DNA of 64,000 nt from an uncultured bacterium (GCA_964482725.1 CAYZYT010000009.1:19832-83831), one strand, 5' to 3'. Shown: positions 1 through 45,074, counted from the first letter of the stretch. Numbers and translations are program-made. Notes: generated by a model from the letters alone, not told the origin.

Positions 1-44
1 AACTCATCGAGACGGCCGCTCCCGCACTTTCTGAAAAATATCAG

Positions 45-12000: not shown

Positions 12001-12437
12001 TGTTAGTCACTTTGCGCGGCAACCTCTCGATCAATGTGAAGGGTGGGGTCGAAGATGTGCGTCTGATCCAGAAAAAGTTTGATGATCTTATGACCCAAGA
12101 GGGGATCACGCTGGCGGCTGGGCAGCTGCGTATTGTCCCGGCGACAAGCCGCAACCATTTCGAATCTTTTAAAGGCTCCGAAAAAGCCGATGCCTTTATG
12201 GCCCGCCGGGAAGATCACCTGCGTGCGCGGCCCCGGAACGTCAGCAGTTTTTGGATCACCCAGGACCAGGACCGGATGGAGACGCTGGCCGCGGGGATCG
12301 CGACGGCTTTACTTCAGGTCGCTTCGGATAAGCCTATGGACCGGAACACTCTTTACAGCCCTTCCATGTTCCGGGACCTTTTAACGAACGTGATGAATGC
12401 CATCCAAGGGTATCTCCAGATCCAGACAGCGGCCTGA
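45..12437 (+). CDS. Giant multidomain PTS-like phosphorelay protein (EI-like PEP-utilizing module + 2x HPr + 4x CheY-like receiver); possibly 5'-truncated by window edge (no in-frame stop upstream of pos 45, first codon TTG)
   Basis: ORF track 4130 aa. PEP-utilizing signature motifs ILFPMVASPEQL, FYDIGTNDLEKE, CVCGQMGGNQ (cf. EI IMFPMI/FSIGTNDL/CGE-AGD). Two HPr-like GLHAMPS / GIHVRPAG motifs. Four D-D...D...K receiver domains (FVDDDP..IISDFSMPG etc.). Confidence 0.8.
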   Translation: MSPDQVAKSVVQTVSSSSVFSGTLTADQQKENPSTVRFTPAASSEISTSQNSAIMKAAATMGRAEALQLDPRTDAGLGQSATDIDFSARAPAVLRAEIRPKADSFQTPITVQVAPYRQIKMWGEGKRLNIAIPGITVVPLDLQESSGMDKVIAVRLSVFVKVPAASSEDVFKAYRGDVSLAAKKIPALGKNKSIVFIPKTPKSAEVKDYENWQRVVISDNPVKVAIDLGKAIEIFVKARSEQRRPTKFEPVDPDTVKKMMDFMALIQRPFDSGIHFGLFLGVGEMLAGEPASILAAIRRGNSGEAQIRVRSLMERLNKRVVAMPLYFKNLRALAEKLAGMELIDPEYLETLQSSLRKKEEKARSEESSLKSQLGKSQYIKLSSATEERSELRERQVFEGDLTTEKTVRGHAVFLSEDKHDFQWAMAPGGESLAETEYETWFKIVHDGINELFLPPMARHLKIFIQKKREEAIKSKKTSSDPMLKTSHPIALVLGAVQDGVAKNDIKQLEKGSVEESLFLKYVEDMARIFKIQRQIVLRSGGSDEAEKIIKRQFSVALELMEENIAQKEEALDSQRRRLAFFPHAEQQLKDNEMILQEGREGPTPLDDEYREDLEEKNENWREILETKEEVVKAEGRHDLQKMVLKGLEKRLKQGVESELYLGKTDAEGNPLALGMKDGGSLPFVIYSYALKNFLSKIKKFDLETIEGAHGAQSNQDSGTVFRDIAMGLTERLELEMIGGVAPQEKNISIISDGTQRILFVRRPLSANEILREVSRYGADLVGIVATQSSASAHWVIVVRGRNSAPPILFLSEKKYKDMLNKIQLDEDVLLVPSDETVGRGVLKTNPSPEDLDKALRAKKEEDLLAQGERKIGQFPLGISVGVNLSTHDIGDPRASGADNSGLVRKDFLDDKTKREIEDVGQSIGSGDFKFDEWLTVLEKLNFSDMSSKVDIDSLMNNFVGVLTPEAVGRIRTLLGHLRTVDGRVLRDDFFEGGKYVPFRTLDLQPDSKNKDLLDALKRLHRQYPKAGLIQLSPEELKKDPLRNGVTGFDFYQHSNLGKFFLIWQVTALLIEYAQHLDSTDQKDPAKLAILFPMVASPEQLKFIQQEILPVARKLAVLNFERTDEWDTQSFLAVQAKVQKASDRVSYGMMVEVMDILKNESLMDSMVQNPFVEFYDIGTNDLEKELWESIVKAPVDRDVEEAQRLFGRLMPDLVMGLDRFARKLADYNMEAGRDPARKQKRMCVCGQMGGNQKFLALVERWRRLKVPVSVSVGPEDVSHVRHALLRYSRVSQSSLDEVFEVPNYIDRRAGKLAKSQMLISKKFLKVAEAWQERYARMGYYHGFYRDSLDPVTGIGSFRDILVMRDIYKLFGGKQPDLKGAGVAEEEDMTREEFEKLLNYEKGKSGLFDEQVCAALLSAYDFLKGVRQVYREMQVKDPQKFKEPFNLHTGNLNDFLEAYEGKFGKQEWLARTDAQQRQDQFFRHYYVMANHVYTSLTGMVHEGYEDLFGADYEDIGLVTVIQTERDSQHKEEAIPLRVQLRSGMFFKREVGHIYRKVKELYIPEAYERMAFERFSRNPALMLEVFSRAVVDGDEEVRISYDLQKIMRRAIRNAGPVSSGADEMLFKNLIKGFFALDHDISYPIWRMHRFGFFSKFLPDYDAMPNFFPGDGRRSSVHIQTLNAMEFLEKLFNTKDFAFLRAGLVLQQLKVDPQDLTTLRLSLLMLGIVRAKLRLKPGNVPAPADIKKIVAEALAAFGISGQSEQAELIAWLIEGERTLNRNDLSAPEKIRKALETIFLEEGKNITSKKWDMLYLLTFVMRAGRAEHEKLVMLKREGPDSSLANCDKLYLAGKVLTKISIPPQEFEQLVEKTQRLERDGLQELNQPVLMRLLTGEKADPEEEISKAWADFSRREADILAYYEQNEILPSKYREALHAEIDAMAHQRTVFKTMFLKYEKMVSRYYWKGLDPETLTQQLICCISLEVLQRHADHRPILLFNALPQHYSNAFEIVFGRVSEDPALLAIYSRILYQNDFSIETVNIQREKGEEGKFIVRFMGSFPRGKQDLKPVMTAMRKDLADILDAPGEAKENRPGWFEERVRRLYRLLGPYSELALFAANQRNNPLFFRNTFNRHGDLAVQRSGGTTPTTEVDFFEGGGRGNSSYNTLTISTEDRRGLTALVTNYLSLIRGLNISDFSFEDTLGKKTKMIVRLNHPRKETWQEALFFRIVGIFFFWKAPWKKSKDRLSEKEKTQIKEELTNMLDAFEAVIHRGHFLNTYALKINASGTVNPADVAEKSSEASSEPAPIEVEESTAEVMPKGAVTKAVDLPEIPTVGVDDPSAREYTIQGSLGLHAMPSQLLAKFAINQSFLDEVIFEQKGIPTDMKSVLSLLELGQLWGEPVVIRIKAKPEATPEQLQAFWTWIEELRDPGDPKNLLFFAPIKRSEVRVEEKQFSVGNRLGIHVRPAGVIVTLAEAYAGSLKIKITKKKVTVNAASMMGLLTLDAGKGAKVTITVEGPQEQAKEFWDKLALLEEGGESLFRSEIRGKGKILFVDDDPGIQMTVADSLAFVGGYEVEKAFSADEALEILKKGDFVPDLIISDFSMPGKTGGDLVKAIRLSANGIARIPVLMFTAAAAQMDIENLYREGQITGTVSKTSEPDKFHAQVEWILQNEQSVREILALAGEDVAAKVALDQEILQFMLHPNQSPRVLAKLLELGIREDVPRWQEVLGEVQIRLHRDIAKTQVARGRSEIRNFTDVFNSILIVDDRLANRYANVQILKARGFKGVIHQAASAAEARDIMKQQKVDVLILDRKMPGMLGTEFAREILRPSEKLGVSVVLFTAQKKEAEQELSGIGDRVVIVEKEGDDPVGKIVSALNQLANRSETREITNRQRIAHLMSYLVNNMTMPLVMATDRDAVSMESLKSSIGELVLLFRILDVKDMESRGEELFIPAGDDNENIIVHKKTIGLGGKTPGQIFKGESLEQLAAEVRFDWILEDFKPEILELRGWRDALAIKAAADLSATERRNIARMAEKILEKSQKTVARLSQTVTQVKKILVVDDDVANRALLENLLRRQGYTVVVATNGAEAIKKLEDEHDIDFLITDFHMPEKTGGDILQAMAEGKLSRKIPSALMSGGLSDSTVDLKLFWAEGVYVEFLQKPNLIKPLFEILKRFDGPGAAGVGPAKAAGSEASFSAEAVLRIKKMLELENRAGDVLEMYQKDVVEGRLPRAASLKQLLASFRDGAEKESNLYKSASWVLGEIGARSEMRESSNRQKIINLLRHSLSGRIQIFESAEDASFVSKEILRETVRETLVVFRVFDLELFKARGGQLFIPKDDPNVFAYQIPSAQTRDDGKGGREPVKVYQTSVFGAMEKGKTFSFLNSEDQAALYQLSEEVGFEKIRADFNPQVVKLEEFKKELSTTADIAPELRSRIKLLGKELLEKIDELSAPLAAEPRTITAVPKNKANLHILVVDDEDGMRTTTAKLLRNKGYVVSTAVNGKDALDKLRAGGIEGVVSDITMPEMDGIALTNAIIDEGINVFIFLVSGYSSTDLGLEGFAKKGKKVGFFQKPYSLSDLDKAIKEHVRSEVRGTEKIQKDIADLNGKIVAEMERMSLRVLGTKEMKRTSEGRSLYRTFDHMTRKTSRDRYVSLADLEFTQRDLALFVQNHARQVASEKAALDVLGRHLDNLITQRKKIEDLYKELGATRYAPVSTEADKQAALDYIQTAGTVWQIDLQRLIESVPEQQTHLRPLLESFTAPLKTWILKPGYVSLEKEQSPEYLVGILNRLHKYERTASGDLAEHHEAGTRDLITAPRRLEMFQLAEGLSYLIAASKNLKWAQSEFPFARAEVRVAGTAEYKESVRNTLPVVVDLPVGLEVVAAAEQLGVYSDRGIAAELEGGISEDNIKQARLWIAVKVLKAMGASDGQIMNERLRSFMDKVMASLPGHIKAVAGLEAAKGPQFHVYLEGLSEQDWSEFVRNFPVVLGMLVTLRGNLSINVKGGVEDVRLIQKKFDDLMTQEGITLAAGQLRIVPATSRNHFESFKGSEKADAFMARREDHLRARPRNVSSFWITQDQDRMETLAAGIATALLQVASDKPMDRNTLYSPSMFRDLLTNVMNAIQGYLQIQTAA
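2330..3900 (+). other. Domain: PEP-utilizing enzyme (Enzyme I / PPDK-like) phosphohistidine region + PEP-binding TIM barrel
   Basis: SSASAHWVIVVRG (candidate phospho-His loop). ILFPMVASPEQLKFIQQEI, YDIGTNDLEKELW, RMCVCGQMGGNQKFL match conserved EI/PPDK C-terminal motifs. Confidence 0.6.
7077..7320 (+). other. Domain: HPr-like phosphocarrier #1
   Basis: EYTIQGSLGLHAMPSQLLAKFA... resembles the HPr N-terminal His15 loop and fold length. Confidence 0.55.
7380..7630 (+). other. Domain: HPr-like phosphocarrier #2
   Basis: FSVGNRLGIHVRPAGVIVTLAEAY...VTVNAASMMGLLTLDAGKGAKVTITVEG; canonical G-hH-aRPA motif and serine-region LL/G pattern. Confidence 0.65.
7672..8030 (+). other. Domain: CheY-like receiver REC1
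   Basis: KILFVDDDPGIQ...PDLIISDFSMPGKTGGDLVKAI...VLMFTA. Confidence 0.7.
8320..8600 (+). other. Domain: CheY-like receiver REC2
   Basis: ILIVDDRLANRYANVQILKARG...VDVLILDRKMPGMLGTEFAREI...VVLFTA. Confidence 0.65.
9195..9545 (+). other. Domain: CheY-like receiver REC3
   Basis: KILVVDDDVANRALLENLLRRQGYTVVVATNGAEAI...DFLITDFHMPEKTGGDILQAM. Confidence 0.7.
10440..10800 (+). other. Domain: CheY-like receiver REC4
   Basis: HILVVDDEDGMRTTTAKLLRNKGYVVSTAVNGKDALDKL...GVVSDITMPEMDGIALTNAI. Confidence 0.7.
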
Positions 12438-23389: not shown

Positions 23390-23731
23390 GTGAGAGTTCG
23401 AATGACCGGTCTTATGCTCGTAGGGATGTTTTGCCTCGTCTTGAGTCCTGCCTGTCTTGCGCAGGAGCAAGGGTATTTTGCTCAAATGGGGCAGGCCCTT
23501 AGCCGAGGTGTCAAGAATATCGTCAGTTTTCCCTTGGAGATTCCCGCGACGATCGCTAAACATGACAGGGAAGATGACGGGAACACCCGCGTTTTCCGGG
23601 ATGCTGCTGGCTTTGTGGATGGAACCTTTCGAGCTGTGACAAGGCTGGGCTGCGGTATTTGGGACGTTCTTTTTTCCGTGGTGCCCGGGCAGCAAGATGA
23701 GCTTCCGTTAACACCCAAGACTTTGTTTTAA
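23390..23731 (+). CDS. Small secreted protein, unknown function
   Basis: Signal peptide MRVRMTGLMLVGMFCLVLSPACLA; precedes paralog cluster. Confidence 0.5.
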   Translation: MRVRMTGLMLVGMFCLVLSPACLAQEQGYFAQMGQALSRGVKNIVSFPLEIPATIAKHDREDDGNTRVFRDAAGFVDGTFRAVTRLGCGIWDVLFSVVPGQQDELPLTPKTLF

Positions 23732-23783
23732 TTTGAAGATTTATCAGATTTTCTTAAAATCCGTTTGTGCCCGGGAGGGAAAG

Positions 23784-24716
23784 ATGTCGAGGATTGCTTT
23801 TTTATGTGCTTTGACGATTTTAACCGGTGCTTTAGCAACGGTTGCCCATGCCGGCAAAGTGGAACTGACGACCTACTATCCCGCGCCGATGGGAGAGTAT
23901 CAAACTTTAAACACAACAGAAAGTGCTTACTTTGCCACCACCTCCGGGAGTGTCGGCATCGGGACGACCACTCCGAATTATGCCGGCTACGGCGGGCGGG
24001 GTCTGACCATCAATTCGCTCGGCCGTGCTTCTTATATCGAACTTTTCAGGAACGAGAACGTGGGGACGGACTCCATGGTCGGCGCGTGGCGGGCCGGGAC
24101 GGATGTGAACTCCGCTATCGCCGGGATCGATTTTTTGACCGGGCACGATGATAAGGCCAAAGGTGCGATTTCATTTAAGGTCTACAAATCGGGAAGTCTT
24201 AGTGACGCAGTGAACGAAGTCATGCGCATTACGGATGATGGAAGCGTCGCTATCAATAATACCCTGACACTGGCTCCGGTCACCGGTGCTGCGAGCGCCC
24301 AATCCGGTGGAACGGCGGGTTCTCTTCGCTACAGCTCAGACGCCGGAGGGGCGGGCATCGGCGGGGTTCTTTATAAGGACGGTTCGGGGTGGCAAAAACT
24401 TTCAAAGCCAGCCCTCGGGAACTGGCTCAACAGTTTTGTGAAAAATACGGTATATCGAGCCAGTGGCGACGGTTTTGTGCTAGCGTCGGTCTATTTTGAC
24501 GGTGGATCTTATGGCCTTCCGGCTGATACTCCTGCATTTCAAGCGTATACGGATTCTAACAGTTCTCCCACGACCATGGTTGTGGGGACAGGTTATGGCG
24601 GCAGGATCGATCTTTTCTCTATGACATTTCCCGTAAAAAAAGGGGATTATTGGAAAGTCGTCTTTTTGGGGAATAGTGTTACTCAACCTACGATATGGTG
24701 GATCCCTCTGGAGTAG
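23784..24716 (+). CDS. Secreted protein, GKVELTTYYPAP-N-terminus family member 1 (tail-fibre-like Gly/Thr-rich body)
   Basis: MSRIAFLCALTILTGALATVAHA|GKVELTTYYPAPMGEYQTL; VGIGTTTPN motif. Confidence 0.65.
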   Translation: MSRIAFLCALTILTGALATVAHAGKVELTTYYPAPMGEYQTLNTTESAYFATTSGSVGIGTTTPNYAGYGGRGLTINSLGRASYIELFRNENVGTDSMVGAWRAGTDVNSAIAGIDFLTGHDDKAKGAISFKVYKSGSLSDAVNEVMRITDDGSVAINNTLTLAPVTGAASAQSGGTAGSLRYSSDAGGAGIGGVLYKDGSGWQKLSKPALGNWLNSFVKNTVYRASGDGFVLASVYFDGGSYGLPADTPAFQAYTDSNSSPTTMVVGTGYGGRIDLFSMTFPVKKGDYWKVVFLGNSVTQPTIWWIPLE

Positions 24717-24895
24717 TTCTTTGCCAGGTTCTGCCGTTGGGCGGAGGGTATGTTCAATGTTTCGGCTCGAGTTTTTTTATCAGGCGTTCTGGAAAAAGAA
24801 AAGCAGGACTATGGCATCCCCTATGCCAGCAGGGAATGTAAACGAAGTTTCGATGGAACAGAATGCTATCCGCATGAGCGGGGAGGAGGCGTGGA

Positions 24896-25393
24896 ATGCT
24901 TAGGAATATTTTTTGGGGCAGCTTGATTGCTTTCGTCTTAACGATGGCGCCTTCCATTTACGCCGGCAAAGTGGAGTTGACCACCTACTATCCCGCGCCG
25001 ATGGGGGAATATCAGGATCTGAAGGCGACGAACAGTGTCGAGGTGGGAACGCCCGCTGTTCCCGGAACCTTCAAATTGGTCGACGGTCATCAGACCAATA
25101 AGTATGTTTTAACTTCGGACGCAAATGGTGTGGGCACTTGGCAGGCCAATAGCGCTTCCCCCGCGGGTTGGACATGCGGCGTGGTGTCGGCGACCCAACA
25201 CATGACCGCGGCTTATTCCAATTTTACAGTATGGTGTCCTGTTCCAAGAAAGCCTATTTCCGGCGGGATGAGGGGGTGGACTGAATCCCAGATCCTTATG
25301 CCGGTCCAATCGGGAAATCAGTTTGGCTATACGGCGACCAATGGTTCTGCTGTTCCGACTGATATTTCAGTCAACGTTCTTTGCTGCGAATAA
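24896..25393 (+). CDS. Secreted protein, GKVELTTYYPAP-N-terminus family member 2
   Basis: ...APSIYA|GKVELTTYYPAPMGEYQDL; divergent C-terminus. Confidence 0.65.
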   Translation: MLRNIFWGSLIAFVLTMAPSIYAGKVELTTYYPAPMGEYQDLKATNSVEVGTPAVPGTFKLVDGHQTNKYVLTSDANGVGTWQANSASPAGWTCGVVSATQHMTAAYSNFTVWCPVPRKPISGGMRGWTESQILMPVQSGNQFGYTATNGSAVPTDISVNVLCCE

Positions 25394-25480
25394 AGGCCGG
25401 AAGAGACACTGATAAAAGGCCGCATTTTCATGCGCCCGCTTGAGACCGTAAGTTTGGGCGATCGCGGCCACATCCATGCC

Positions 25481-26278
25481 ATGAATCTGAAGCGAACGAG
25501 CCTTCTTTGTTTTTTTCTCCTGAGCGGCATTTTCTCGCCGCCTGTTTTTTCAGCCCCGATGATTTCTCCTCCCGCGAAGGCGTTTTCTTCTCGCCCCTCG
25601 AGTGATCTACCTTATTTAACGCTCGTCTTTATGCCCTTGCATTATGCGAAACCGTCCGCGTTTCGACAGGATGTCGATACCCTTTTCGCTGAGTTAAAAA
25701 AAGAGCCCCCTTTCAATAAGTTTGACAGACTCAGGATCTATTTGCTGGAAGAGTCCTCTTCGGACGAGGAATTTTTCCGGAAGACAGACGCCTTTCCTTT
25801 TCTGGAACCCAAAAGAGATTTCTTGGATCAGCTGAGTCTGATGCTCGGGGGTCCTTATAAATTGATCGTTCTGGATCAGAAGGGAAGTGCCACGGGCGCG
25901 CAGTTGTCGGATTTATCACACGTGTCGGTGATCATCCTTGGCCGGAAGGTTTCTTCGGGGGATTCCGGATTTTCATGTGCTTTTCTGCATGAAATTGGGC
26001 ATAGCCTTGGCTTGCGTGAGGAAGGGGCTTTTAGCAGCGAACCGGTCGTTCCGGGTCCGCCCAATTGCGCTATCGACCGAGCGACGGCTGAAAAATGGTG
26101 GGGCGACATGGTGCCTCAGGACAAACGCGTCGGCTATTTTGAATTTGAGGCCGGAGGGAAAAAATTTATCAAACCGACGCGTTATTCCGTGATGTCGAAC
26201 TCTGCTCGGTTTGGATCCTACGGACCGGTGAACGAGCGGTATTTGCGGACGATCCTGGATGGCCCTAAGCAGAGTTAA
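25481..26278 (+). CDS. Secreted zinc metallopeptidase (HEIGHSLGL)
   Basis: Signal peptide MNLKRTSLLCFFLLSGIFSPPVFSA; AFLHEIGHSLGLRE HExxH motif. Confidence 0.55.
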   Translation: MNLKRTSLLCFFLLSGIFSPPVFSAPMISPPAKAFSSRPSSDLPYLTLVFMPLHYAKPSAFRQDVDTLFAELKKEPPFNKFDRLRIYLLEESSSDEEFFRKTDAFPFLEPKRDFLDQLSLMLGGPYKLIVLDQKGSATGAQLSDLSHVSVIILGRKVSSGDSGFSCAFLHEIGHSLGLREEGAFSSEPVVPGPPNCAIDRATAEKWWGDMVPQDKRVGYFEFEAGGKKFIKPTRYSVMSNSARFGSYGPVNERYLRTILDGPKQS

Positions 26279-26424
26279 TTCCGTGTCTTGCGGTTGTTTC
26301 TCTCGCGGTTATTTATTTAGTAAAGGGCTTCACGCTTTCCTTGTAAAACCCTCTCATCTTAAGTAGAATACCGCCTCTTGCGACTTCGGAAGACAGACGG
26401 TTTTTTGAATGAAATGATTTTTTT

Positions 26425-26500
<76 letters not shown>

Positions 26501-26522
26501 ATTCTCAATGAATGGGTGCCAC

Positions 26523-26570
26523 GCCGTCAGGACTTCCTTGAGTCCTGACGGCGACGGCATCATTTTTTTG
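26523..26570 (+). terminator. Hairpin + T7 terminator between tRNA-Ala and tRNA-Leu
   Basis: GCCGTCAGGACT-TCCTTG-AGTCCTGACGGC ... CATTTTTTTG. Confidence 0.6.
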
Positions 26571-26581
26571 TTCTGTGCCGT

Positions 26582-26665
26582 GCGGGGATGGCGGAACTGG
26601 CAGACGCACTGGACTCAAAATCCAGCGGTAGCAATACCATGAGAGTTCGACTCTCTCTCTCCGCA
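26582..26665 (+). tRNA. tRNA-Leu (anticodon CAA), long variable arm, CCA not encoded
   Basis: GCGGGGATGGCGGAACTGGCAGACGCA-CTGGA-CTCAAAA-TCCAG-CGGTAGCAATACCAT-GAGAGTTCGACTCTCTC-TCTCCGCA; aligns with E. coli tRNA-Leu(CAA). Confidence 0.85.
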
Positions 26666-26769
26666 GTATTTCATATTTCGTCCAGCGCATATCGTATTTC
26701 GTATATCGAAAAAAATCGCGCGTAGATTTTTACGACATGCGAGGCACGAATAACGACATACGGTCTCCT

Positions 26770-29535
26770 ATGGCCAGTGGTTTTAAAGCATATCCTTTCG
26801 ACGAGATCGAAAAAAAATGGCAGACCTACTGGTCTGATCATCAAACCTTCCGTGCCCCTGACCCCGGAGAATCCGGCGGCGACAAGCCCAATTCTCCATC
26901 AGAAAATTCAAAGGTTAATTGGGCTAGCCCTGGCAACCTTCAATCAAAAGAAGATAGTCCCAATGCTATTCAATTTCCAAGCAGTGGAAATTGGGGCAAT
27001 CCTGACCACCATCATGGGAAAGAAAATAAAAGTCAGGATAGATGCCAGGGCAAGAAAAAATATTATGTCCTCGATATGTTCCCGTATCCTTCCGGCTCCG
27101 GCCTTCACGTCGGACATTTAGAAGGGTATACCGCCACCGACATTGTCAGCCGCTACAAACGGATGCGCGGGTTCAATGTCCTGCACCCGATGGGCTGGGA
27201 CGCGTTCGGACTTCCGGCCGAGCAATATGCCATCGAGACGGGCACGCATCCCCGCGAGACTACCCAAAAGAATATCGAGACCTTCAAGCGCCAGATCCAG
27301 CAGGTGGGTTTCAGTTATGATTGGGAACGCGAGATCGACACCACCGATCCTCTCTATTACCGCTGGACCCAATGGATCTTTATGAAACTTTTTGAAAGAG
27401 GGCTGGCCTACGAATCCGAGAAGCCGGTGTGGTGGTGCGACGGATGCAAGGCCGTCCTCGCGAACGAAGAAGTCGATGCTAACGGGACTTGTGAACGCAA
27501 AGGCCACAAGGACGTTTACCGCCGCCCGCTTCGCCAATGGATGCTCAAGATCACGGCCTACGCCGACCGTCTTTTAAAAGATCTGGACCTTCTGGATTGG
27601 TCGGAGCCCATCAAGGAAATGCAGCGCAACTGGATCGGGAAATCAACCGGGGCGGAGGTGACTTTCCCGATTGATTGGGAAAGTCATCCTGAGCGACCGG
27701 AGGGAGTCGAAGGATCTGCTCAAGCAAAGATTCTTCGCTGCGCTCAGAATGACGATCGATCCATCCGTGTTTTTACGACGCGGCCGGATACGCTTTTTGG
27801 CGCGACGTATATGGTTTTAGCTCCGGAGCACGCGATGGTGTCGAAGATCACGACGTCAGAGCAGAAGAAGGCCGTGGAAGCTTATGTGGCCACCGCGACG
27901 CACAAATCCGATCTGGATCGCACGGATCTTGCCAAAGAAAAAACCGGCGTTTTTACCGGGGCTTATGCGATCAACCCCGTGAATGATAAGAAGATCCCGG
28001 TGTGGATCGCGGATTATGTGCTGATGGGCTACGGGACGGGAGCCATCATGGCGGTACCCGCACACGATGAGCGGGATTTTGAGTTTTCGAAAAAGTTCAG
28101 ATTGCCGATTATTCCCGTCATTCTGAGGCCGAAGGCCGAAGAATCTAAAAACGTAGATCCTTCGCACCCTCGGGGTGCTCAGGATGACGGTGAAAGTGCC
28201 TTTGTCGGCGATGGGGTCAATATCAACTCTACGACGCCGGACGGTTCATTTTCGATTAACGGCCTTCCGACCCCGGAAGCGAAACAAAAGATCACGAAGT
28301 GGCTCGAAGAAAGGAAGATCGGCAAAGAAGCGGTCCAGTACAAGCTCCGGGATTGGCTCTTTAGCCGGCAACGATATTGGGGTGAGCCGATCCCAGTCGT
28401 GCACTGCGCGAAGTGCGGCCCCGTACTTATTCCTGAAAGCGAATTGCCGCTCATGCTTCCCGAGATGAAAGATTACACGCCGACCGGCAACGCGGAGCCG
28501 CCGCTTGCCAAGGCCGTCGACTGGCTGAAATGTAAATGCACCCAGTGCGGCGGTCCGGCCATGCGCGAAACGAACACCATGCCGCAGTGGGCGGGTTCGT
28601 GCTGGTATTATCTTCGCTATCTGGATCCGAAGAATACCAAAGCTCCGGTCGATCCGGAAAAAGAAAAATACTGGATGAATGTGGATCTCTATGTCGGTGG
28701 CGCGGAACACGCGGTGCTTCATTTACTCTATGCAAGGTTCTGGCATAAGGTGCTTTATGACATCGGGGTCGTTTCCACGCTGGAACCCTTCCAAAAACTT
28801 ACGAATCAGGGGATGATCCTCGGCGAAGACAGTCAGAAGATGTCCAAGTCGCGCGGCAATGTGGTGAATCCCGATGAGATGATCTCCCAATACGGCGCTG
28901 ATAGTCTTCGACTTTACGAAATGTTCATGGGGCCGCTGGAGATGACAAAGCCCTGGGCGAATTCCGGAGTGGAAGGGGTCTACCGGTTCCTCGGGAAAGT
29001 GTGGCGTCTCTTTATCGATAAGGATGACAAACTTCACCCTGTCATGGTTCAACGTGCGCCGAACGCTGCGGAGCTCAAGGCACTTCACAAGGCGATCAAA
29101 AAAGTAACGGAAGATCTGGAAGCGCTGCGATTTAATACGGCGATCTCGGCCCTGATGATCTTTATGAACGAAATAGCGGCCCATCAAGATCACTCGAAGG
29201 AAGTGATGGAGCAATTCCTTCTTCTTTTAGCGCCTCTTGCGCCTCACGTGGCGGAGGAATTATGGCAGCGCCTGGGTCATGCCAAGACGCTTGCTTATGA
29301 AAAATGGCCCGACTACGATAACCGATATCTTATCGAGGATCATGCGGAGATGGCGATCCTTGTGGGCGGTAAAGTACGCGCAAAAATGGTCGTTTCTCAT
29401 AATCAGAGCGAAGAGGTGATCCGACAAATGTGTTTGGAGCATCCCCGTGTGAAAGAACTGCTCGTGGGGAAGGTCGTCAAGAAGGTCATCATCGTTCCGG
29501 GTCGCACGGTCAACCTTGTGGTGGCGGATGCCTAG
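26770..29535 (+). CDS. leuS: Leucyl-tRNA synthetase carrying three in-frame insertions
   Basis: [27 protein letters not shown] (HIGH), KMSKS, editing and anticodon domains; start at [17 protein letters not shown] (ORF track 26737). Confidence 0.9.
26866..27057 (+). other. Low-GC in-frame insertion (~64 aa) in leuS between N-terminus and HIGH motif
   Basis: [65 protein letters not shown] absent from canonical LeuS; internal inverted AATTGGG / CCCAATT repeats. Confidence 0.5.
27683..27754 (+). repeat. Nested palindromic element (GTCATTCTGAG family), inverted orientation, in-frame inside leuS
   Basis: GTCATCCTGAGCG..CGAAGGATCT-loop-AGATTCTTCG..CGCTCAGAATGAC; encodes [28 protein letters not shown]. 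Confidence 0.7.
28116..28189 (+). repeat. Nested palindromic element (GTCATTCTGAG family), in-frame inside leuS
   Basis: CGTCATTCTGAGGCCGAAGGCCGAAGAATCTAAAAACGTAGATCCTTCGCACCCTCGGGGTGCTCAGGATGACG; encodes [25 protein letters not shown]. Confidence 0.8.
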
Positions 29536-29548
29536 CACAGCGGCAAGT

Positions 29549-29573
29549 TTGAAATGGGATGCGCCCATTTCAA
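29549..29573 (+). terminator. Perfect 10-bp palindrome after leuS (TTGAAATGGG-ATGCG-CCCATTTCAA) with T-rich tail
   Basis: 14 nt after leuS stop. Confidence 0.45.
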
Positions 29574-29611
29574 TCTGTTTTATGTGCTGTACCGTTAACC
29601 CGAAGGAATAA

Positions 29612-31666
29612 ATGAAAAACGGCACTAAAGTCGAGATCAAGAATCAAAAGATCTTTGTCGGGAAAAAAGAAGTGCCGCTCATTTCCGGCGAAGTCCACTA
29701 CTGGCGCCTCAATCCTCATGCCTGGCGCGAAGCCCTCAAACGTGTCAAAGAGATGGGGCTTGAGATCGTCTCCACGTATGTTCCCTGGGATTTTCACGAA
29801 TACAAGCGCGGCCATTTTGATTTTACCGGAAAAACCGATCAGGCGCGCAACCTTAAGGCATTCCTCGATCTGACCCGCAAGGAAGGTTTCTGGCTCATCC
29901 TTCGTCCGGGTCCTTATATCTACAGCGAATGGCCGCGTGACGGCGTTCCCGATTATGCCTACAAGTATCACCGCCTGCATCCCAAGTTCCTCGGCTATGC
30001 CAAGGAATATTTAAAACAAGTCAGTAAGATCTTCAGGCCTTATCTTGCCTCGCGCAAGAACGGTCACATCCTGATGCTTCAGGCGGATAATGAGATCGAT
30101 CCCTGGCCGGATGTCTTCGGACAGCAATACGGTCTTTCCAAGAAGCCGGGACTTTTCCAGGATTTTATGCGCGATCTTTACAAGGATGATCTCCCGGCGC
30201 TGAACGAATCCTGGGGCACGCATTACGCGTCTTTCCGGGAAGCGTCGCCTTTTATCGCGACCATGCTGCCGGGCGAAAAAGGGCTTCCGCTTAAAGGGGA
30301 TAAAGAACTCAAACGGCATCTTGATTATTTCAAGTTCAAGTATGCGTATTCCCAGGAGGTCGCGAAGGGCAGCGTCCAAATGTATCGCGATCTGGGGGTC
30401 GATATCCCGATCTACCTGAACACCTATCCTTTCTTTTACGCGCACGATTGGGCCGCTTTTCAGGAAGTCTCGGATGCGGTGGGGCTGGACCTTTATCCCG
30501 CCAATGAGCTCAAAGAGGACGAGTATGAGCATCGCAAATTTTGCGACAAGATCCGTTATCTTTCGAGCGTTTCGAAACTTCCGTTCATCGCGGAATTCCA
30601 GTCAGGAATATGGCACGGCCGTCATTATGAAACCAGCGTGCTGACGCCCAATCACTACCGGATGATCTGTTTTTCCGCGTTCCTTGCCGGGGTTAAGGGG
30701 TGGAATTGGTACATGCTGGTGAATCGCGACAACTGGTACATGTCGCCGATCAACGAGTGGGGACGAGTGCGCGGGGAGCTGTATGATGTGTTCAAACAGA
30801 TCGTTTCCGTTTTTAAACAGCTCCGGCCGACCTCGCTTAAGAAAATGACCGAGATTGGCGTCACCTTCAATCCTCTCCAGTACGCGGCCCGGACGCTCAC
30901 GCACAACAGCCCCATTCTCGTCGCGCTTTATCAGGGGGATGTGGACTATGACATGTGCGATCCCCGGCGTAAGCTTCCCGGAAAAAAGGTGTTCTTTTAT
31001 TCCGGAAATCAGTGGCTCGGGAAAGCCGCGCATCAGAATCTTCGGAGGTATGTGGAAGAAGGCGGCACTTTGGTGGCCTTCCGTTCTTTCCCCCGCAAGG
31101 ACGATGATTTCATGCCGTACCAAGGGGTGGGCTTTGAAGAACCGGAGCGCACTCTTTTTGAGTTCAAACGGCAATTCAAAATAACTCTTGGTAAGGGTGC
31201 CGCGCCGATCGACGTCCATAGCTCCGTTTATGTTTTTAAGGCTGCGGGATGCGAAAAGATCCAGGCGGATCTTGGGACCTATGGAAAACAAACGGTCGGT
31301 TACATCAAAAAGATCGGCAAGGGAAAGATCATTCATCTGGGGATGGAGCCGGTCCCGGAGCTCGTGCTGGGAGTTTTGAACTATCTCAAAGCACCTCTGA
31401 TGAGCTATTCAGTCACGAGGGACGTCAAGACCGCGCTTTTTAACCGGGGCCGACGTTATTTTCTGGTGGTGGTCAATAACGGCAATGAAGATAAGAGCGC
31501 CACGATCTGTTTGCCGGCGCTGGATGGGATTCGTGGGAAGATGACCGCTCGTGACCTGTTGAGCGGAGAAAAAAAAGTTTATTTGAAAGAGAGCCGCCAT
31601 CCGTTCAATGTGCACGTTGCGCGCAAAGATGGCCGTGTTCTCGAGTTTACGTTCTCGCGTAGCTAA
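29612..31666 (+). CDS. Glycoside hydrolase family 35 beta-galactosidase-like
   Basis: ISGEVHYWRLNPHAWREALKRVKEMGLEIVSTYVPWDFHEY...GFWLILRPGPYIYSEWPRDGVP typical GH35 N-terminal TIM barrel. Confidence 0.75.
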   Translation: MKNGTKVEIKNQKIFVGKKEVPLISGEVHYWRLNPHAWREALKRVKEMGLEIVSTYVPWDFHEYKRGHFDFTGKTDQARNLKAFLDLTRKEGFWLILRPGPYIYSEWPRDGVPDYAYKYHRLHPKFLGYAKEYLKQVSKIFRPYLASRKNGHILMLQADNEIDPWPDVFGQQYGLSKKPGLFQDFMRDLYKDDLPALNESWGTHYASFREASPFIATMLPGEKGLPLKGDKELKRHLDYFKFKYAYSQEVAKGSVQMYRDLGVDIPIYLNTYPFFYAHDWAAFQEVSDAVGLDLYPANELKEDEYEHRKFCDKIRYLSSVSKLPFIAEFQSGIWHGRHYETSVLTPNHYRMICFSAFLAGVKGWNWYMLVNRDNWYMSPINEWGRVRGELYDVFKQIVSVFKQLRPTSLKKMTEIGVTFNPLQYAARTLTHNSPILVALYQGDVDYDMCDPRRKLPGKKVFFYSGNQWLGKAAHQNLRRYVEEGGTLVAFRSFPRKDDDFMPYQGVGFEEPERTLFEFKRQFKITLGKGAAPIDVHSSVYVFKAAGCEKIQADLGTYGKQTVGYIKKIGKGKIIHLGMEPVPELVLGVLNYLKAPLMSYSVTRDVKTALFNRGRRYFLVVVNNGNEDKSATICLPALDGIRGKMTARDLLSGEKKVYLKESRHPFNVHVARKDGRVLEFTFSRS

Positions 31667-31699
31667 CATCGGATCTGGAACATAGAAGGAAGGGGAAGC

Positions 31700-32440
31700 A
31701 TGTTTGGGAAGCTCAGTTTATACCTAGCGTTTCTGGCCTTTGTTTTTTCGGCGAATGCTTTTGCCGGGAAGGTGGAACTGACGACCTATTATCCCGCGCC
31801 ATATGGAGAGTATAAAGAATTAACAACAACGGAAAATGCGGCCTTTGCCTCGACATCGGGAAATGTCTCGGTGGGATCCACAACGAATCATGCGGTTCTG
31901 GCTATAGATAATACTCTGACGCTTGCTCCGGTCGCAGGCGTTGCGAGTGCCCAATCGGGTGGGACGGCGGGTTCTCTGCGCTACAGTTCAGACGCTGGAG
32001 GGTCGGGTGTGGGAGGGCTGCTTTATAAAAATGGCTCTGATTGGCAGCGCTTGGGGGGCGCCGTTTCTGATGTTGTGACTGCTTCTCAAGGTTCGCCTGT
32101 GACGTGCGATCAACCCGGGGGGGCTTCGGCAATAGCCTGTGATATTGTTTCCGTGTCTTTGGCTCCCGGAAAGTGGATTGTTACTTCCTCGCATAGTCAG
32201 TATGGCATCGACCATGGCGGAGCTTGTGCTCAATCTAAGTGGGCTATTAAAGCCAACGGAGGTTTCCTTGTAAACCCGACACTTGTTGTTTCCTGCGGCG
32301 TTGCGGAGTTTAGGCCGGGAGCCACTACTCTCTACACGAATGCTACAAGTAGCAACCAAACAGTTTCACTGGTTGCCGTGGTGGATCCTGGAACGGGCGG
32401 CGTAGCTTCAAATGCGACGCTCATCGCATCTAAGATATAA
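31700..32440 (+). CDS. Secreted protein, GKVELTTYYPAP-N-terminus family member 3
   Basis: ...SANAFA|GKVELTTYYPAPYGEYKEL; middle segment LTLAPVAGVASAQSGGTAGSLRYSSDAGG shared with member 1. Confidence 0.65.
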   Translation: MFGKLSLYLAFLAFVFSANAFAGKVELTTYYPAPYGEYKELTTTENAAFASTSGNVSVGSTTNHAVLAIDNTLTLAPVAGVASAQSGGTAGSLRYSSDAGGSGVGGLLYKNGSDWQRLGGAVSDVVTASQGSPVTCDQPGGASAIACDIVSVSLAPGKWIVTSSHSQYGIDHGGACAQSKWAIKANGGFLVNPTLVVSCGVAEFRPGATTLYTNATSSNQTVSLVAVVDPGTGGVASNATLIASKI

Positions 32441-32510
32441 GCTGTTCCCAGCAGCTAAAATAGGATCGTTCTTTTTTGCAGAGAGTTAAAGTGATGATGC
32501 TCTGAGAGGA

Positions 32511-33326
32511 GTGACTTTGTACGAAACCTTTTTTGGATTGAATGAGTCGCCGTTTAACGTTACGCCCGACCCGAGGTTTGTCTATCTGAGCAAGCACCAC
32601 CAGGCGGCGCTCTCGGCAATGCGCTATGGTGTGGACCGGCGCTCGGGCTTCATCCAGATCACCGGCGAGATCGGGGCGGGGAAGACGACGCTTTCGCGTA
32701 TGTTTCTCCAGCAGTTGGGCGAGAATGTCCACACCTCGCTTGTCTTCAATCCGAAACTTTCAGAGCTGGAGCTTTTGCAAGGGATCGTTGAGGACTTCGG
32801 ACTCAAGCCCAAGGCGAAACGGCGTAAGGATTATTTTGATTGTCTGAACCGCTTTCTCCTGGAAGAAAGTACGAAGGGATTCAATGCGGTCGTGATCATT
32901 GACGAAGCGCAGCTTCTGCCCCCGCGGGCGTTGGAACAGGTCCGTCTTTTGTCGAACCTTGAGACCACGACGCAGAAGCTTTTGCAGATCATTTTGATGG
33001 GGCAGCCGGAGCTGAAGGACCTTCTCAAGCGTCCGGACCTCAAGCAACTCCGGCAGCGCATCACCGTGCGTTGTCACTTGCCGGAACTCAGTTCGGAAGA
33101 AGTGGGGTATTACATCGCGCATCGCTTGAGCGTGGCCGGCGCGCGCGAGAATTTTTTTACGGCAGAAGCCATGCAACGCATTTATGAACTTTCCTCGGGG
33201 ATCCCGAGAGTTATTAACGTGCTGGCGGACCGGGCTTTGCTTGCCGCCTATGCCAAAAGTACTTTCGTGATCGATCCGGTGCTCGTGGAATGCGCCGAAG
33301 CCGATCTCCAAGGAGTGAGCGTATGA
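32511..33326 (+). CDS. ExeA/GspA/MshM-like AAA ATPase
   Basis: LYETFFGLNESPFNVTPDPRFVYLSKHHQAALSAMRYGV...GEIGAGKTTL Walker A, hhhhDEAQ Walker B. Confidence 0.8.
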   Translation: MTLYETFFGLNESPFNVTPDPRFVYLSKHHQAALSAMRYGVDRRSGFIQITGEIGAGKTTLSRMFLQQLGENVHTSLVFNPKLSELELLQGIVEDFGLKPKAKRRKDYFDCLNRFLLEESTKGFNAVVIIDEAQLLPPRALEQVRLLSNLETTTQKLLQIILMGQPELKDLLKRPDLKQLRQRITVRCHLPELSSEEVGYYIAHRLSVAGARENFFTAEAMQRIYELSSGIPRVINVLADRALLAAYAKSTFVIDPVLVECAEADLQGVSV

Positions 33327-33802
33327 GCCTGATCCAACAAGCTTTGGATAAAACAAACAAAGTGCAAGAAACGAGGACTGTGAATCCGTCTCCTAAGGCG
33401 TATGACCGTGACCCGATGGGTGTGGCTCTGGAGCAGGAGCTCACTCAAGTCCAGCGATCTTATGCCGCGAGGCGGAGGCTGTACTGGAAAGTTTCCTTGG
33501 GAATTCTTGCAATCTGCTTTCTGGCCGGACTTTCTTACCTGGGGCTCCGGAGTACTCCGGCGAGGGGGAAAGTTTCATCCAGCGTGGCTACGGTCACGTC
33601 GCATGCGCCGCTTCGGATCTTTTCCGGGACGCTCTACCGCCTTACGGGCATTACGAGTATAAACGGTAAGTCGATGGCTGTGATCAATGAAGATATTGTT
33701 AGCGTGGGAGATTCTCTTTCAGGTAAAGCTATTGTCAAGGCGATCGGTCCCGGAGAAGTTCGTTTGGATGTCCAGGGAAGAGAGATCAAGCTCACGCTTT
33801 AA
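33323..33802 (+). CDS. Single-pass membrane partner of ExeA-like ATPase (GspB-like position), ATGA overlap
   Basis: MSLIQQAL... one TM (VSLGILAICFLAGLSYLGL) + periplasmic C-terminal domain. Confidence 0.5.
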   Translation: MSLIQQALDKTNKVQETRTVNPSPKAYDRDPMGVALEQELTQVQRSYAARRRLYWKVSLGILAICFLAGLSYLGLRSTPARGKVSSSVATVTSHAPLRIFSGTLYRLTGITSINGKSMAVINEDIVSVGDSLSGKAIVKAIGPGEVRLDVQGREIKLTL

Positions 33803-45029: not shown

Positions 45030-45074
45030 GTAATTACCATTAGTTAAAAGAAATAAAAATTACGGCCGAGGCAA

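Follow-up and report, generated by a model that had tools for sequence, protein, structure and literature searches.

The window, by which we mean the whole 64 kb stretch of DNA analysed here, was scanned in six frames for the motif, and exactly three matches were found, all on the plus strand (Table 1). In the products of all three genes (fam1, fam2 and fam3), a Sec signal peptide leads straight into GKVELTTYYPAP(M/Y)GEY, which we call the handle or tag. Their signal peptides differ in sequence, are 22–23 aa long and end in AHA, IYA or AFA. The scan confirms the first-pass annotation, which had described three genes with unlike signal peptides and one common segment after cleavage; it had also rightly listed VGIGTTTPN in fam1. 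A TTG further upstream, at 23733, could also serve as the start of fam1, but this is less probable.

Table 1. Features of the window
Feature	Position	Strand	Description
Small secreted protein	23390-23731		Weak TIGR04073 match, 39 bits (cutoff 50)
fam1	23784-24716	+	310 aa; no Pfam/NCBIfam match; signal peptide aa 1-23, handle, ATTSGSVGIGTTTPN tail-fibre motif, ~77-aa inserted domain, block 2, variable C-terminal tip
Handle 1 (fam1)	23853-23900	+	Encodes GKVELTTYYPAPMGEY, predicted mature N-terminus
Block 2 of fam1	24249-24394	+	NTLTLAPVTGAASAQSGGTAGSLRYSSDAGG...W; conserved neck module
fam2	24896-25393	+	165 aa; no Pfam/NCBIfam match; signal peptide aa 1-23, handle, VLTSDANGVGTWQ motif, Cys-containing C-terminal tip
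Handle 2 (fam2)	24965-25012	+	Encodes GKVELTTYYPAPMGEY
HExxH (zincin-like) secreted protein	25481-26278	+	Directly downstream of fam2
tRNA-Ala	26425-26500	+	With tRNA-Leu, bounds the variable slot holding fam1, fam2 and the zincin gene
tRNA-Leu	26581-26666	+	See tRNA-Ala
fam3	31700-32440	+	246 aa; signal peptide aa 1-22, handle, block 2, variable C-terminal tip
Handle 3 (fam3)	31766-31813	+	Encodes GKVELTTYYPAPYGEY
Block 2 of fam3	31901-32046	+	DNA repeat of fam1 block 2
AAA_22 ATPase	32511-33326		TIGR03015-like, 282 bits (cutoff 324.5)
ATPase partner	33323-33802		Small bitopic protein; weak C-terminal T2SSC match, E 1.7e-3

Over the 48 nt of the handle the three genes are pairwise 90%, 85% and 75% identical, so the earlier figure of about 85% was roughly right. 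Handles 1 and 2 are 90% identical with five synonymous codon differences; overall, 4–9 synonymous differences occur per 15–16 conserved codons, and the longest identical run is 23 nt. The second block that had been noticed in the first and third members is 75% identical between fam1 and fam3 over 57 aa and forms a 146-nt repeat (80% identical), with synonymous differences at 18 of the 43 conserved codons. The codon-level comparison of handles and block 2 gave no sign of recent recombination among the three copies, and the suggested cassette switching was not borne out. Domain shuffling, by contrast, is clear across the family.

The three proteins were compared with known classes. No match to the prepilin signal (TIGR02532/PF07963: short leader, G|F/M-x-x-x-E, hydrophobic helix) was found in fam1–fam3, no prepilin motif or gene was found in the 64 kb window, and the N-termini are classical AxA signal peptides; an assignment as type IV pilins, which requires a class III signal, was rejected. 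The C-termini (…WWIPLE, …VLCCE and …LIASKI) lack a PEP motif with a TM helix, and classification as PEP-CTERM/exosortase cargo or as GspA/ExeA-dependent cargo was likewise rejected, given the missing PEP motif and the missing co-occurrence with the ATPase described below.

Family extent and architecture

The N-terminal profile matches 2577 clusters at 50% identity (E<=1e-3), nearly always at residues 1–51. A degenerate DNA motif located 69 genome loci, of which every one named to phylum is an Omnitrophota MAG and the rest are generically labelled TPA MAGs; the motif is far beyond chance, since only ~0.3 matches would be expected in 596 Gb. No Pfam or NCBIfam model covers the family, and no mention of the motif was found in the literature searched. 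The family is thus large, undescribed and restricted to Omnitrophota.

The 197 unique N-termini keep the consensus xxPhi-x-Phi-TTYYP(A/S)PxG(E/D)Y, in which Phi is a hydrophobic residue and T, Y, Y, P, P, G and Y, including three Tyr, are invariant. In 162 of the 197, the TT starts 5 residues past the signal-peptidase I site (range 3–14), as predicted by the -3/-1 rule and not by SignalP. The tag therefore lies at the predicted mature N-terminus across the family. It occurs even on members of 68–75 aa with almost no body, and conservation spans only ~16–20 residues plus the GIGT motif.

The bodies are tail-fibre-like and mosaic. A Peptidase_S74 chaperone ends 22 of 144 members, Collar, Gp53-like_C, Gp34_trimer, Peptidase_G2 and H_lectin domains occur among the same 144, and GxVGIGTxxP repeats are found in the bodies; a Pfam search detected no tail-fibre domains in the three window proteins, though they are present elsewhere in the family. 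Folds as unrelated as H_lectin, S74 fibres and Cys-rich tips all retain the tag. The protein P0056 is a chimera of a fam1-like and a P0017-like half, and a second case of mosaicism is given by fam3 and P0002, which are 73% identical over residues 9–124 and unrelated beyond. Closer relatives of the window proteins are P0011 (95% identical to fam1) and P0001 (96% identical to fam3), and the N-terminal half of fam2 is similar to P0016 (44% identity). Family genes are mostly scattered among housekeeping genes, and no phage structural genes lie nearby. The family is tail-fibre-like yet not phage-borne, because its neighbours are housekeeping genes and the degenerate DNA motif has no match in 2.9 million viral contigs. 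As had been proposed, a mature N-terminus that is conserved while the body varies does resemble a shared sorting or assembly handle, and both the constant spacing and the mosaic bodies agree with this.

An AF2 model made from an alignment of 144 sequences shows the tag as a coil with pLDDT 55–64 (40–64 across the AF2 monomer models); block 2 reaches 92–96 and the signal-peptide helix exceeds 90. No packed structure for the tag appears in the AF2 models, nor a folded N-domain in the AF2 model. The models suggest that the tag is a linear peptide outside any folded domain, although disorder cannot be proved from monomer models.

Genomic neighbourhoods

The neighbouring genes named in the first-pass annotation, those of the small secreted protein, the ATPase and its partner, are all present. 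The ATPase aligns end to end with TIGR03015, with a score below the family cutoff, and lies 70 nt downstream of fam3. With a start at 33323, the partner gene overlaps the stop codon of the ATPase gene in an ATGA; its longest ORF starts at 33290. These three genes had been suggested as a possible dedicated export system for the family, which the synteny does not support. No homologue of the three components was found in the 489 kb around 77 family ORFs at 71 loci. About 25 closely related contigs (ATPase 80–96% identical) share a backbone of YdjC, small protein, LeuRS, GH35, ATPase, partner and ComEC, in which the small protein travels with YdjC, GH35 is directly followed by the ATPase and no family gene lies within 10 kb. 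Specific to the strain, fam3 is inserted between GH35 and the ATPase and occupies this slot only in the same-strain contigs L072 and L101 (98–99% identical).

All three family genes of the window occupy such strain-variable slots. The gap between the small protein and LeuRS, which holds fam1 and fam2, is only ~300–460 nt in five relatives (L074, L081, L082, L087 and L092) and carries other cargo in a sixth (L073). The zincin-like protein encoded there has only sub-threshold Pfam matches, to Reprolysin and M66, around its HEIGH motif. With homologues directly 3' of a family gene in L036 and L043, that is, in three genomes including the window, it is a possible accessory of the island.

The commonest recurrent neighbours of the family genes are prepilins (TIGR02532 above cutoff), together with GspG/PilA-, GspH/PilV- and GspK-like proteins. 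Prepilin ORFs occur in 10 of 71 loci (raw count) from 10 different MAGs, and each time the pilins precede the family gene on its own strand; the loci are orthologous, so this orientation does not represent 10 independent events. The conserved order is SurA-like (divergent), PilV/GspH-like, J-like, GspK-like, one or two major pilins, the family gene, guaB and guaA. The same order is found in L154, which brings the total to at least 11 MAGs in which a minor-/major-pilin operon is followed by a same-strand family gene. The proteins in this slot are S74-type fibres in L019, L044, L047 and L064, and the L047 fibre shares its middle domain with fam1. The family and the pilins are thus joined by a conserved operon link. 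The link concerns a single paralogue in these MAGs, with most paralogues elsewhere, and pilins are not adjacent to family genes in at least 55 of the 71 loci, including all three genes of the window. The adjacent GspE-like ATPase of 3–4 MAGs belongs to the kds (LPS core) operon and not to the pilus operon; in L008, two family genes lie within a kdsA-kdsD-gspE-kdsC...lpxL-like LPS context.

Discussion

The three window genes are scattered and vary between strains. They belong to a family of Sec-exported, tail-fibre-like proteins that is specific to Omnitrophota and whose members are probably trimeric surface adhesins. Our tentative proposal, which we hold to be quite possible, is that the tag is a docking or export label sending interchangeable adhesin fibres to a type IV filament; we infer the binding to the filament, the trimeric state and the adhesin function alike. 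Cleavage by signal peptidase would expose the same short aromatic, proline-rich peptide on every member, and this peptide would act as a linear docking/export tag through which many interchangeable bodies, built of stalk modules and swapped tips, could address one common partner. The likeliest partner would be a type IV filament, either a type IV pilus or a T2SS-like endopilus. In the periplasm the tag may bind the minor-pilin tip complex; passage of the fibre through the secretin would follow, ending either in display at the filament tip or in release.

Besides the operon link to pilins, the proposal has a precedent in TcpF (Vibrio cholerae) and CofJ (ETEC), whose N-terminal export signals work in this way on type IVb pili: their N-terminal 10–15 mature residues are disordered, contain a key aromatic residue and bind a trimeric minor pilin at the pilus tip (PMC9565799, PMC10120004, PMC6048534). 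Both systems place a short, aromatic-containing peptide at the very start of a mature, Sec-exported protein other than a pilin; the genes of TcpF and CofJ lie in a pilin operon, as does here one paralogue in at least 11 MAGs. In TcpF and CofJ the peptide docks on the trimeric minor pilin and the cargo trimerises, and docking and trimers of the Omnitrophota proteins would follow by analogy. However, the tag has no evident sequence similarity to their signals, and one cargo per pilus operon there stands against many paralogues per genome and thousands of clusters here; most family genes lie outside pilin operons, and the family-linked pilins are not typed as T4b. PilY1/PilC, the non-pilin tip adhesins of type IVa pili, are also encoded within a minor-/major-pilin operon and Sec-exported, and are thought to ride the minor-pilin tip complex. 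PilY1, however, docks via a large C-terminal beta-propeller instead of an N-terminal peptide, is present in a single copy per operon and has no sequence relation to the family. Omnitrophota do possess a conserved T2SS-like locus with class III signal-peptide genes (bioRxiv 10.1101/2023.11.21.568195). Of the earlier suggestion that these proteins belong with an envelope filament or secretion machine, the general direction survives in part, through the recurrent type IV pilin operons, while the ExeA-like ATPase drops out.

By analogy, the family may be functionally comparable to the mosaic adhesive trimer (MAT) fibres of Bdellovibrio bacteriovorus, whose conserved N-terminal domain has been proposed to hold variable fibres on the surface (PMC10769870). 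Both are multi-paralogue families of predatory or host-dependent bacteria, with a signal peptide, a conserved N-terminus, a tail-fibre-like shaft (trimeric in MAT, and putatively so here) and swapped C-terminal tips, and both comprise S74 and non-S74 subfamilies (PMC10769870). The MAT N-terminus, however, is folded, beta-rich and ~130 aa long, as against a coil of 16–20 aa, and the conserved parts are not homologous; the short conserved stretch and the lack of a folded N-domain in AF2 set the family outside the MAT type as defined by that domain. Phage tail fibres and tailspikes share S74, Collar, gp34 and gp53 domains and GxVGIGTxxP repeats with the family, from which they differ in that the family genes are cellular, with Sec signal peptides and housekeeping surroundings. 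The logic is also shared, with these fibres and with the adenovirus fibre and its tail motif FNPVYPY: a short conserved N-terminal peptide attaches a trimeric fibre that varies to a base that does not.

Other readings of the tag have to be weighed against docking on a filament. The tag might bind a constant outer-membrane or LPS component and hold the variable fibres on the cell, the pilin synteny being mere co-regulation of attachment genes. The MAT-like architecture (signal peptide, conserved N-terminus, fibre, variable tip; S74 and non-S74; PMC10769870), the scatter of most family genes among housekeeping genes and the LPS context in L008 are consistent with such anchoring, which we nevertheless judge unlikely: a 16-residue coil is small for a stable anchor when the MAT N-domain has ~130 beta-rich residues, the outer-membrane crossing of the fibres is left unexplained, and the strict order of pilins then family gene in at least 11 MAGs exceeds loose co-regulation. 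It is also quite improbable that the tag is no address label but an element intrinsic to the fibre, such as a folding or trimerisation nucleus, an N-terminal cap, or a site of post-translational modification or of proteolytic maturation, in which the adjacent zincin-like protein might act. Tail fibres do need registration elements, the tag is rich in Tyr, Thr and Pro, a secreted HExxH protein lies 3' of a family gene in three genomes, and proteolysis also acts on the export signal of TcpF once the protein has been exported (PMC10120004). Yet the tag is borne by members with almost no body and kept by unrelated body folds, it is unpacked in AF2, and its constant distance to the free N-terminus suggests that an outside partner reads the terminus.

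That the ATPase, its partner and the small protein export or assemble the family is scarcely credible to us. In some T2SS, GspA and GspB assist in assembling the secretin; the AAA_22 ATPase and the small bitopic partner, with its weak T2SSC-type C-terminal match, resemble GspA/GspB (ExeA/ExeB) and the TIGR03015 PEP-CTERM-associated ATPases, and fam3 lies close upstream. The ATPase score, however, is below the TIGR03015 cutoff, the fibres lack PEP-CTERM, and conserved co-occurrence is missing on both sides, with no homologues at the 71 family loci and with GH35 directly before the ATPase in the ~25 related contigs outside L072 and L101; the small protein belongs with YdjC in the conserved backbone.

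If the tag is indeed a docking label for type IV filaments, a broader picture, which we consider somewhat unlikely, would be an Omnitrophota-wide modular 'tag-and-load' system, in which one type IV filament would take many tail-fibre-like receptor-binding proteins via the 16-residue tag. A cell could then equip the tip of its pilus with one or another fibre for recognising hosts or prey, and populations could do so through strain-variable insertions, a cellular counterpart of phage tail-fibre swapping. No earlier case would be known of a linear export/docking signal that is general and serves many cargoes of a type IV filament.

How T2SS and type IV pili recognise their substrates has long been a question in the field, and to our knowledge only two single-cargo linear signals, those of TcpF and CofJ, have been characterised. 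A 16-residue tag common to thousands of proteins would offer a directly testable, generalisable signal. The motif is also a simple annotation marker for proteins that are at present all 'hypothetical'. Omnitrophota are uncultured, ultra-small and probably host-dependent or predatory bacteria, and tail-fibre-like adhesins that diversify behind a common handle offer a concrete candidate for the means by which they recognise partners.

RESULTS

A six-frame scan of the window detected the handle motif, a conserved peptide of about 16 residues, exactly three times, always on the + strand, in the genes designated fam1, fam2 and fam3. Their signal peptides are all different and of the classical type, with a basic N-terminus and 15–18 hydrophobic residues followed by AHA, IYA or AFA, and GKVELTTYYPAP(M/Y)GEY comes immediately after each of them, which confirms the three-gene observation of the first-pass annotation. 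The second block that it had noticed in fam1 and fam3 (block 2, NTLTLAPV..SAQSGGTAGSLRYSSDAGG..W) was borne out as well, with 75% identity over 57 amino acids; the C-terminal parts are unrelated. None of the three proteins matched a model in Pfam or NCBIfam.

Over its 48 nt, the handle DNA shows pairwise identities of 90%, 85% and 75%; 4–9 of the 15–16 conserved codons differ synonymously between copies, and no identical run exceeds 23 nt. With so many synonymous differences and such short identical runs, the conservation is therefore held at the protein level, and on the same figures we reject recent gene conversion and cassette switching between copies, for which the first-pass annotation had suggested a check. 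In block 2, 18 of 43 conserved codons differ synonymously between fam1 and fam3. The repeat analysis of the window revealed no inverted repeats or invertase-type arrangement around these same-strand genes.

Coordinates of the features discussed (window positions unless a locus is named)
Feature	Position	Strand	Remarks
fam1	23784–24716	+	310 aa
fam2	24896–25393	+	165 aa
fam3	31700–32440	+	246 aa
Secreted HExxH protein	25481–26278	+	about 265 aa; HEIGH zincin motif
Secreted HExxH protein, L036	408–1130	-	about 265 aa; HEIGH zincin motif
Secreted HExxH protein, L043	762–1505	-	about 265 aa; HEIGH zincin motif
Short family member, L021	2242–2487
Short family member, L040	6065–6283
Short family member, L154	1144–1359
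Small secreted protein	23390		weak TIGR04073 match
GspA-like ATPase	32511–33326		AAA_22 domain; end-to-end alignment with TIGR03015, score below cutoff
ATPase partner	start probably 33323		ATGA overlap with ATPase stop; weak T2SSC-type C-terminus
kds operon with GspE-like gene and the genes after it, L008	595–7814
First giant ORF	3–12434	+	>4144 aa; runs off window end
Second giant ORF	45057–63998	+	>6314 aa; runs off window end
LeuRS	26737–29535		932 aa
Inverted repeat copies in LeuRS insertions	27683–27704, 28167–28188		GTCATCCTGAGCG-type repeat

All 37 first-round homologues carry AGKVELTTYYPAPYGEYK after the signal peptide, on very different bodies, and the best named ones bear the label Candidatus Omnitrophota or Omnitrophica; the window, with giant ORFs running off both of its ends, is itself Omnitrophota-like. 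A degenerate DNA pattern for TTYYP(A/S)PxG(E/D)Y, with about 0.3 chance matches expected by calculation in 596 Gb, matched 69 loci in the species-representative genome set, which belong to Omnitrophota MAGs or generically labelled TPA MAGs, commonly with several matches per MAG. The same pattern had 0 matches in 2.9 million viral contigs, on which ground a phage origin of this TTYYP family was rejected. Among 1.84 billion cluster representatives, an N-terminal profile of 51 positions matched 2577 with E<=1e-3 (175 with E<=1e-10), nearly always at residues 1–51 of the protein. P0126, a protein of 2172 aa with 11 'matches', is a false positive, namely an unrelated repeat protein. A 43-aa N-terminal alignment profile returned only 9 short proteins from an index of 5.8 billion, a result of no use for sizing the family, and exposed a subfamily of about 71 aa.

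The consensus is looser in more distant lineages, where it reads Phi-x-Phi-TTYYP(A/S)PxG(E/D)Y (Phi, hydrophobic) behind a short acidic linker; the invariant residues are T, Y, Y, P, P, G and Y. When cleavage sites are predicted by the simple -3/-1 rule, TT starts 5 residues past the site in 162 of 197 unique N-termini and never more than 14 residues past it. A constant tag near the mature N-terminus, borne by mosaic bodies, supports the earlier idea of a shared N-terminal handle.

Peptidase_S74 (S74), an intramolecular trimerisation chaperone of tailspikes, ends 22 of the 144 members scanned; the other domains found among them are Collar, Gp53-like_C, Gp34_trimer, Peptidase_G2, H_lectin and CTHRC1_C, and GxVGIGTxxP repeats are present in many members. 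Modules are shuffled across the family: fam3 and its homologue P0002 are 73% identical across residues 9–124 and unrelated beyond, P0056 joins a fam1-like N-terminal half to an S74 half like that of P0017, and the inserted middle domain of fam1 recurs in the fibre of L047. In fam1, fam2 and fam3 themselves no tail-fibre Pfam domain is detectable, and the shared tag, the GIGT motif, block 2 and these mosaic relations suggest a tail-fibre-like assignment.

The AF2 monomer models were poor overall. Mean pLDDT was 46.5 for fam3, too low for a fold search, and 62.6 for fam1, for which Foldseek found nothing in the PDB below E 1; its best match was the Mu tail fibre (E 1.9). In the model built on 144 aligned sequences, the signal-peptide helix (pLDDT 93–94) and block 2 (92–96) are confident, and the tag is predicted as an unstructured coil (55–64).

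Proteins of a 68–75-aa subfamily, such as P0039–P0044, add little to the tag itself: a signal peptide precedes it, and about 30 residues follow, with ..VPVKTV....AGEIWVEG at their end.

When all ORFs of the 71 family loci were clustered, type IV pilin-like proteins were the most recurrent non-family neighbours, and they were confirmed by matches to TIGR02532 and PF07963 above cutoffs and by GspG/PilA-, GspH/PilV- and GspK-like similarities. Strict prepilin ORFs occur in ten loci from ten MAGs, and in 10/10 of these loci, which are orthologous and not independent, the family gene follows the pilins on the same strand, often at a distance of only 4–150 nt. The conserved order is a divergent SurA-like chaperone gene, a PilV/GspH-like, a J-like and a GspK-like gene, one or two major pilins, the TTYYP gene, guaB and guaA. 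This order is seen in L003, L021, L025, L040, L046, L047 and L064, in part in L019, L044, L048 and L055, and also in L154. The gene in this slot encodes an S74-type fibre in L019, L044, L047 (432 aa) and L064, and a short member, right after the major pilin gene, in L021, L040 and L154.

A GspE/PilB-family ATPase gene adjoins a family gene in L027, L061 and L008. The last case has little weight as a pilus link, since the ATPase lies in a kds/LPS operon. The ATPase lacks the N-terminal domain, and its gene is embedded in a kdsA, kdsD, gspE-like, kdsC operon. A tandem pair of TTYYP genes and a gene for an LpxL-like acyltransferase come next. It is unusual for a filament-type ATPase to be combined with LPS-core genes in this way.

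The first-pass annotation had proposed that the ExeA/GspA-like ATPase, its partner and the small secreted protein form the export system of the family. None of the three had any tblastn match in the 71 family loci (489 kb, 77 family ORFs). For the comparison from the ATPase side, 80 metagenome loci encoding relatives were retrieved. In about 25 close relatives (ATPase 80–96% identical, much above the 39–82% of the partner), the gene order is YdjC, small protein, LeuRS, GH35, ATPase, partner, ComEC; no TTYYP gene lies within the flanks, and GH35 directly abuts the ATPase gene. fam3 occupies this gap only in the 98–99% identical contigs L072 and L101. The absence of co-occurrence from the family side and the fam3-less relatives from the ATPase side argue against the proposed export system. 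The ATPase pair and the small protein are therefore conserved backbone genes, the family genes are variable insertions, and their vicinity in the window is coincidental. The pair (32511–33802) is translationally coupled by an ATGA overlap at 33323–33326, and ComEC always follows it across these relatives.

The island of fam1, fam2 and the zincin gene (23.7–26.3 kb), bounded downstream by tRNA-Ala and tRNA-Leu, is missing from the ATPase-locus relatives, most of which have next to nothing in its slot; L073 has an unrelated membrane-protein pair there. Elsewhere too, TTYYP genes are present or absent in differing intergenic slots of a common housekeeping backbone, for example between RuvC and RuvA or between the PDDEXK and Cupin genes. 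Along the backbone RuvC, RuvA, RuvB ... PdxJ ... PDDEXK, Cupin, DJ-1, CYTH, EF-P, the slots vary among L155, L157 and L001, with no transposase or integrase near the TTYYP genes.

LeuRS is longer in the window than in the close relative L073 (819 aa), and the extra length consists of in-frame insertions. Two of these carry mutually inverted copies of one repeat, both translated; it seems that a small palindromic repeat element has entered an essential gene without disturbing its frame. The two giant ORFs are typical of the giant proteins reported for Omnitrophota; their sampled parts contain PEP-utilizers_C, three Response_reg, Glycos_transf_2 and dynein-type AAA_5 domains, and the second starts with a signal-anchor-like hydrophobic segment.

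DISCUSSION

The best-supported reading of the tag, drawn by analogy, is a linear docking or export peptide. The partner that all members share would most likely be the minor-pilin tip of a type IV filament. The signal of TcpF binds the clefts of the trimeric minor pilin TcpB via aromatic residues, and TcpF trimerises on TcpB; CofJ and CofB behave alike (PMC9565799, PMC10120004, PMC6048534). Like these signals, the Omnitrophota tag is aromatic, lies at the mature N-terminus, apparently has no intrinsic structure, as far as the models indicate, and is linked to pilins in operons; its cargo is probably trimeric. Unlike them, it serves very many cargoes, most of which are encoded away from the pilin operon. 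The short subfamily could serve that docking site as a minimal ligand or a cap. In Omnitrophota, a T2SS-like locus that comprises gspD/E/F, a PPIase gene and genes with class III signal peptides is described as conserved (West-Roberts et al., bioRxiv 10.1101/2023.11.21.568195).

Two other readings place the function of the tag elsewhere. That it anchors the proteins directly to the surface seems to us unlikely. We regard it as quite improbable that the tag is intrinsic to the fibre, serving in folding or modification, perhaps with processing by the neighbouring secreted HExxH protein, although homologues of this protein also come after a family gene in L036 and L043. Three genomes thus have the gene of this HEIGH zincin protein immediately downstream of a TTYYP-family gene; the protein reached no Pfam family threshold, and might process the fibres or their tag. 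Functionally, the TTYYP family resembles the mosaic adhesive trimer (MAT) fibres of Bdellovibrio bacteriovorus, in which a conserved N-terminus behind a signal peptide is likewise joined to a fibre whose tips are swapped, and S74 is present in some and absent from others (PMC10769870). The N-terminus of MAT, however, forms a folded domain of about 130 aa, and because of this difference the TTYYP family is not a MAT member.

A text search of the literature for the motif strings found no paper, and the available passages on secretion, pili, fibres and adhesins in the Omnitrophota giant-protein preprints contain no description of the family. To conclude, the TTYYP family is an unreported, phylum-specific family of tagged fibres whose link to type IV pilin operons is conserved.
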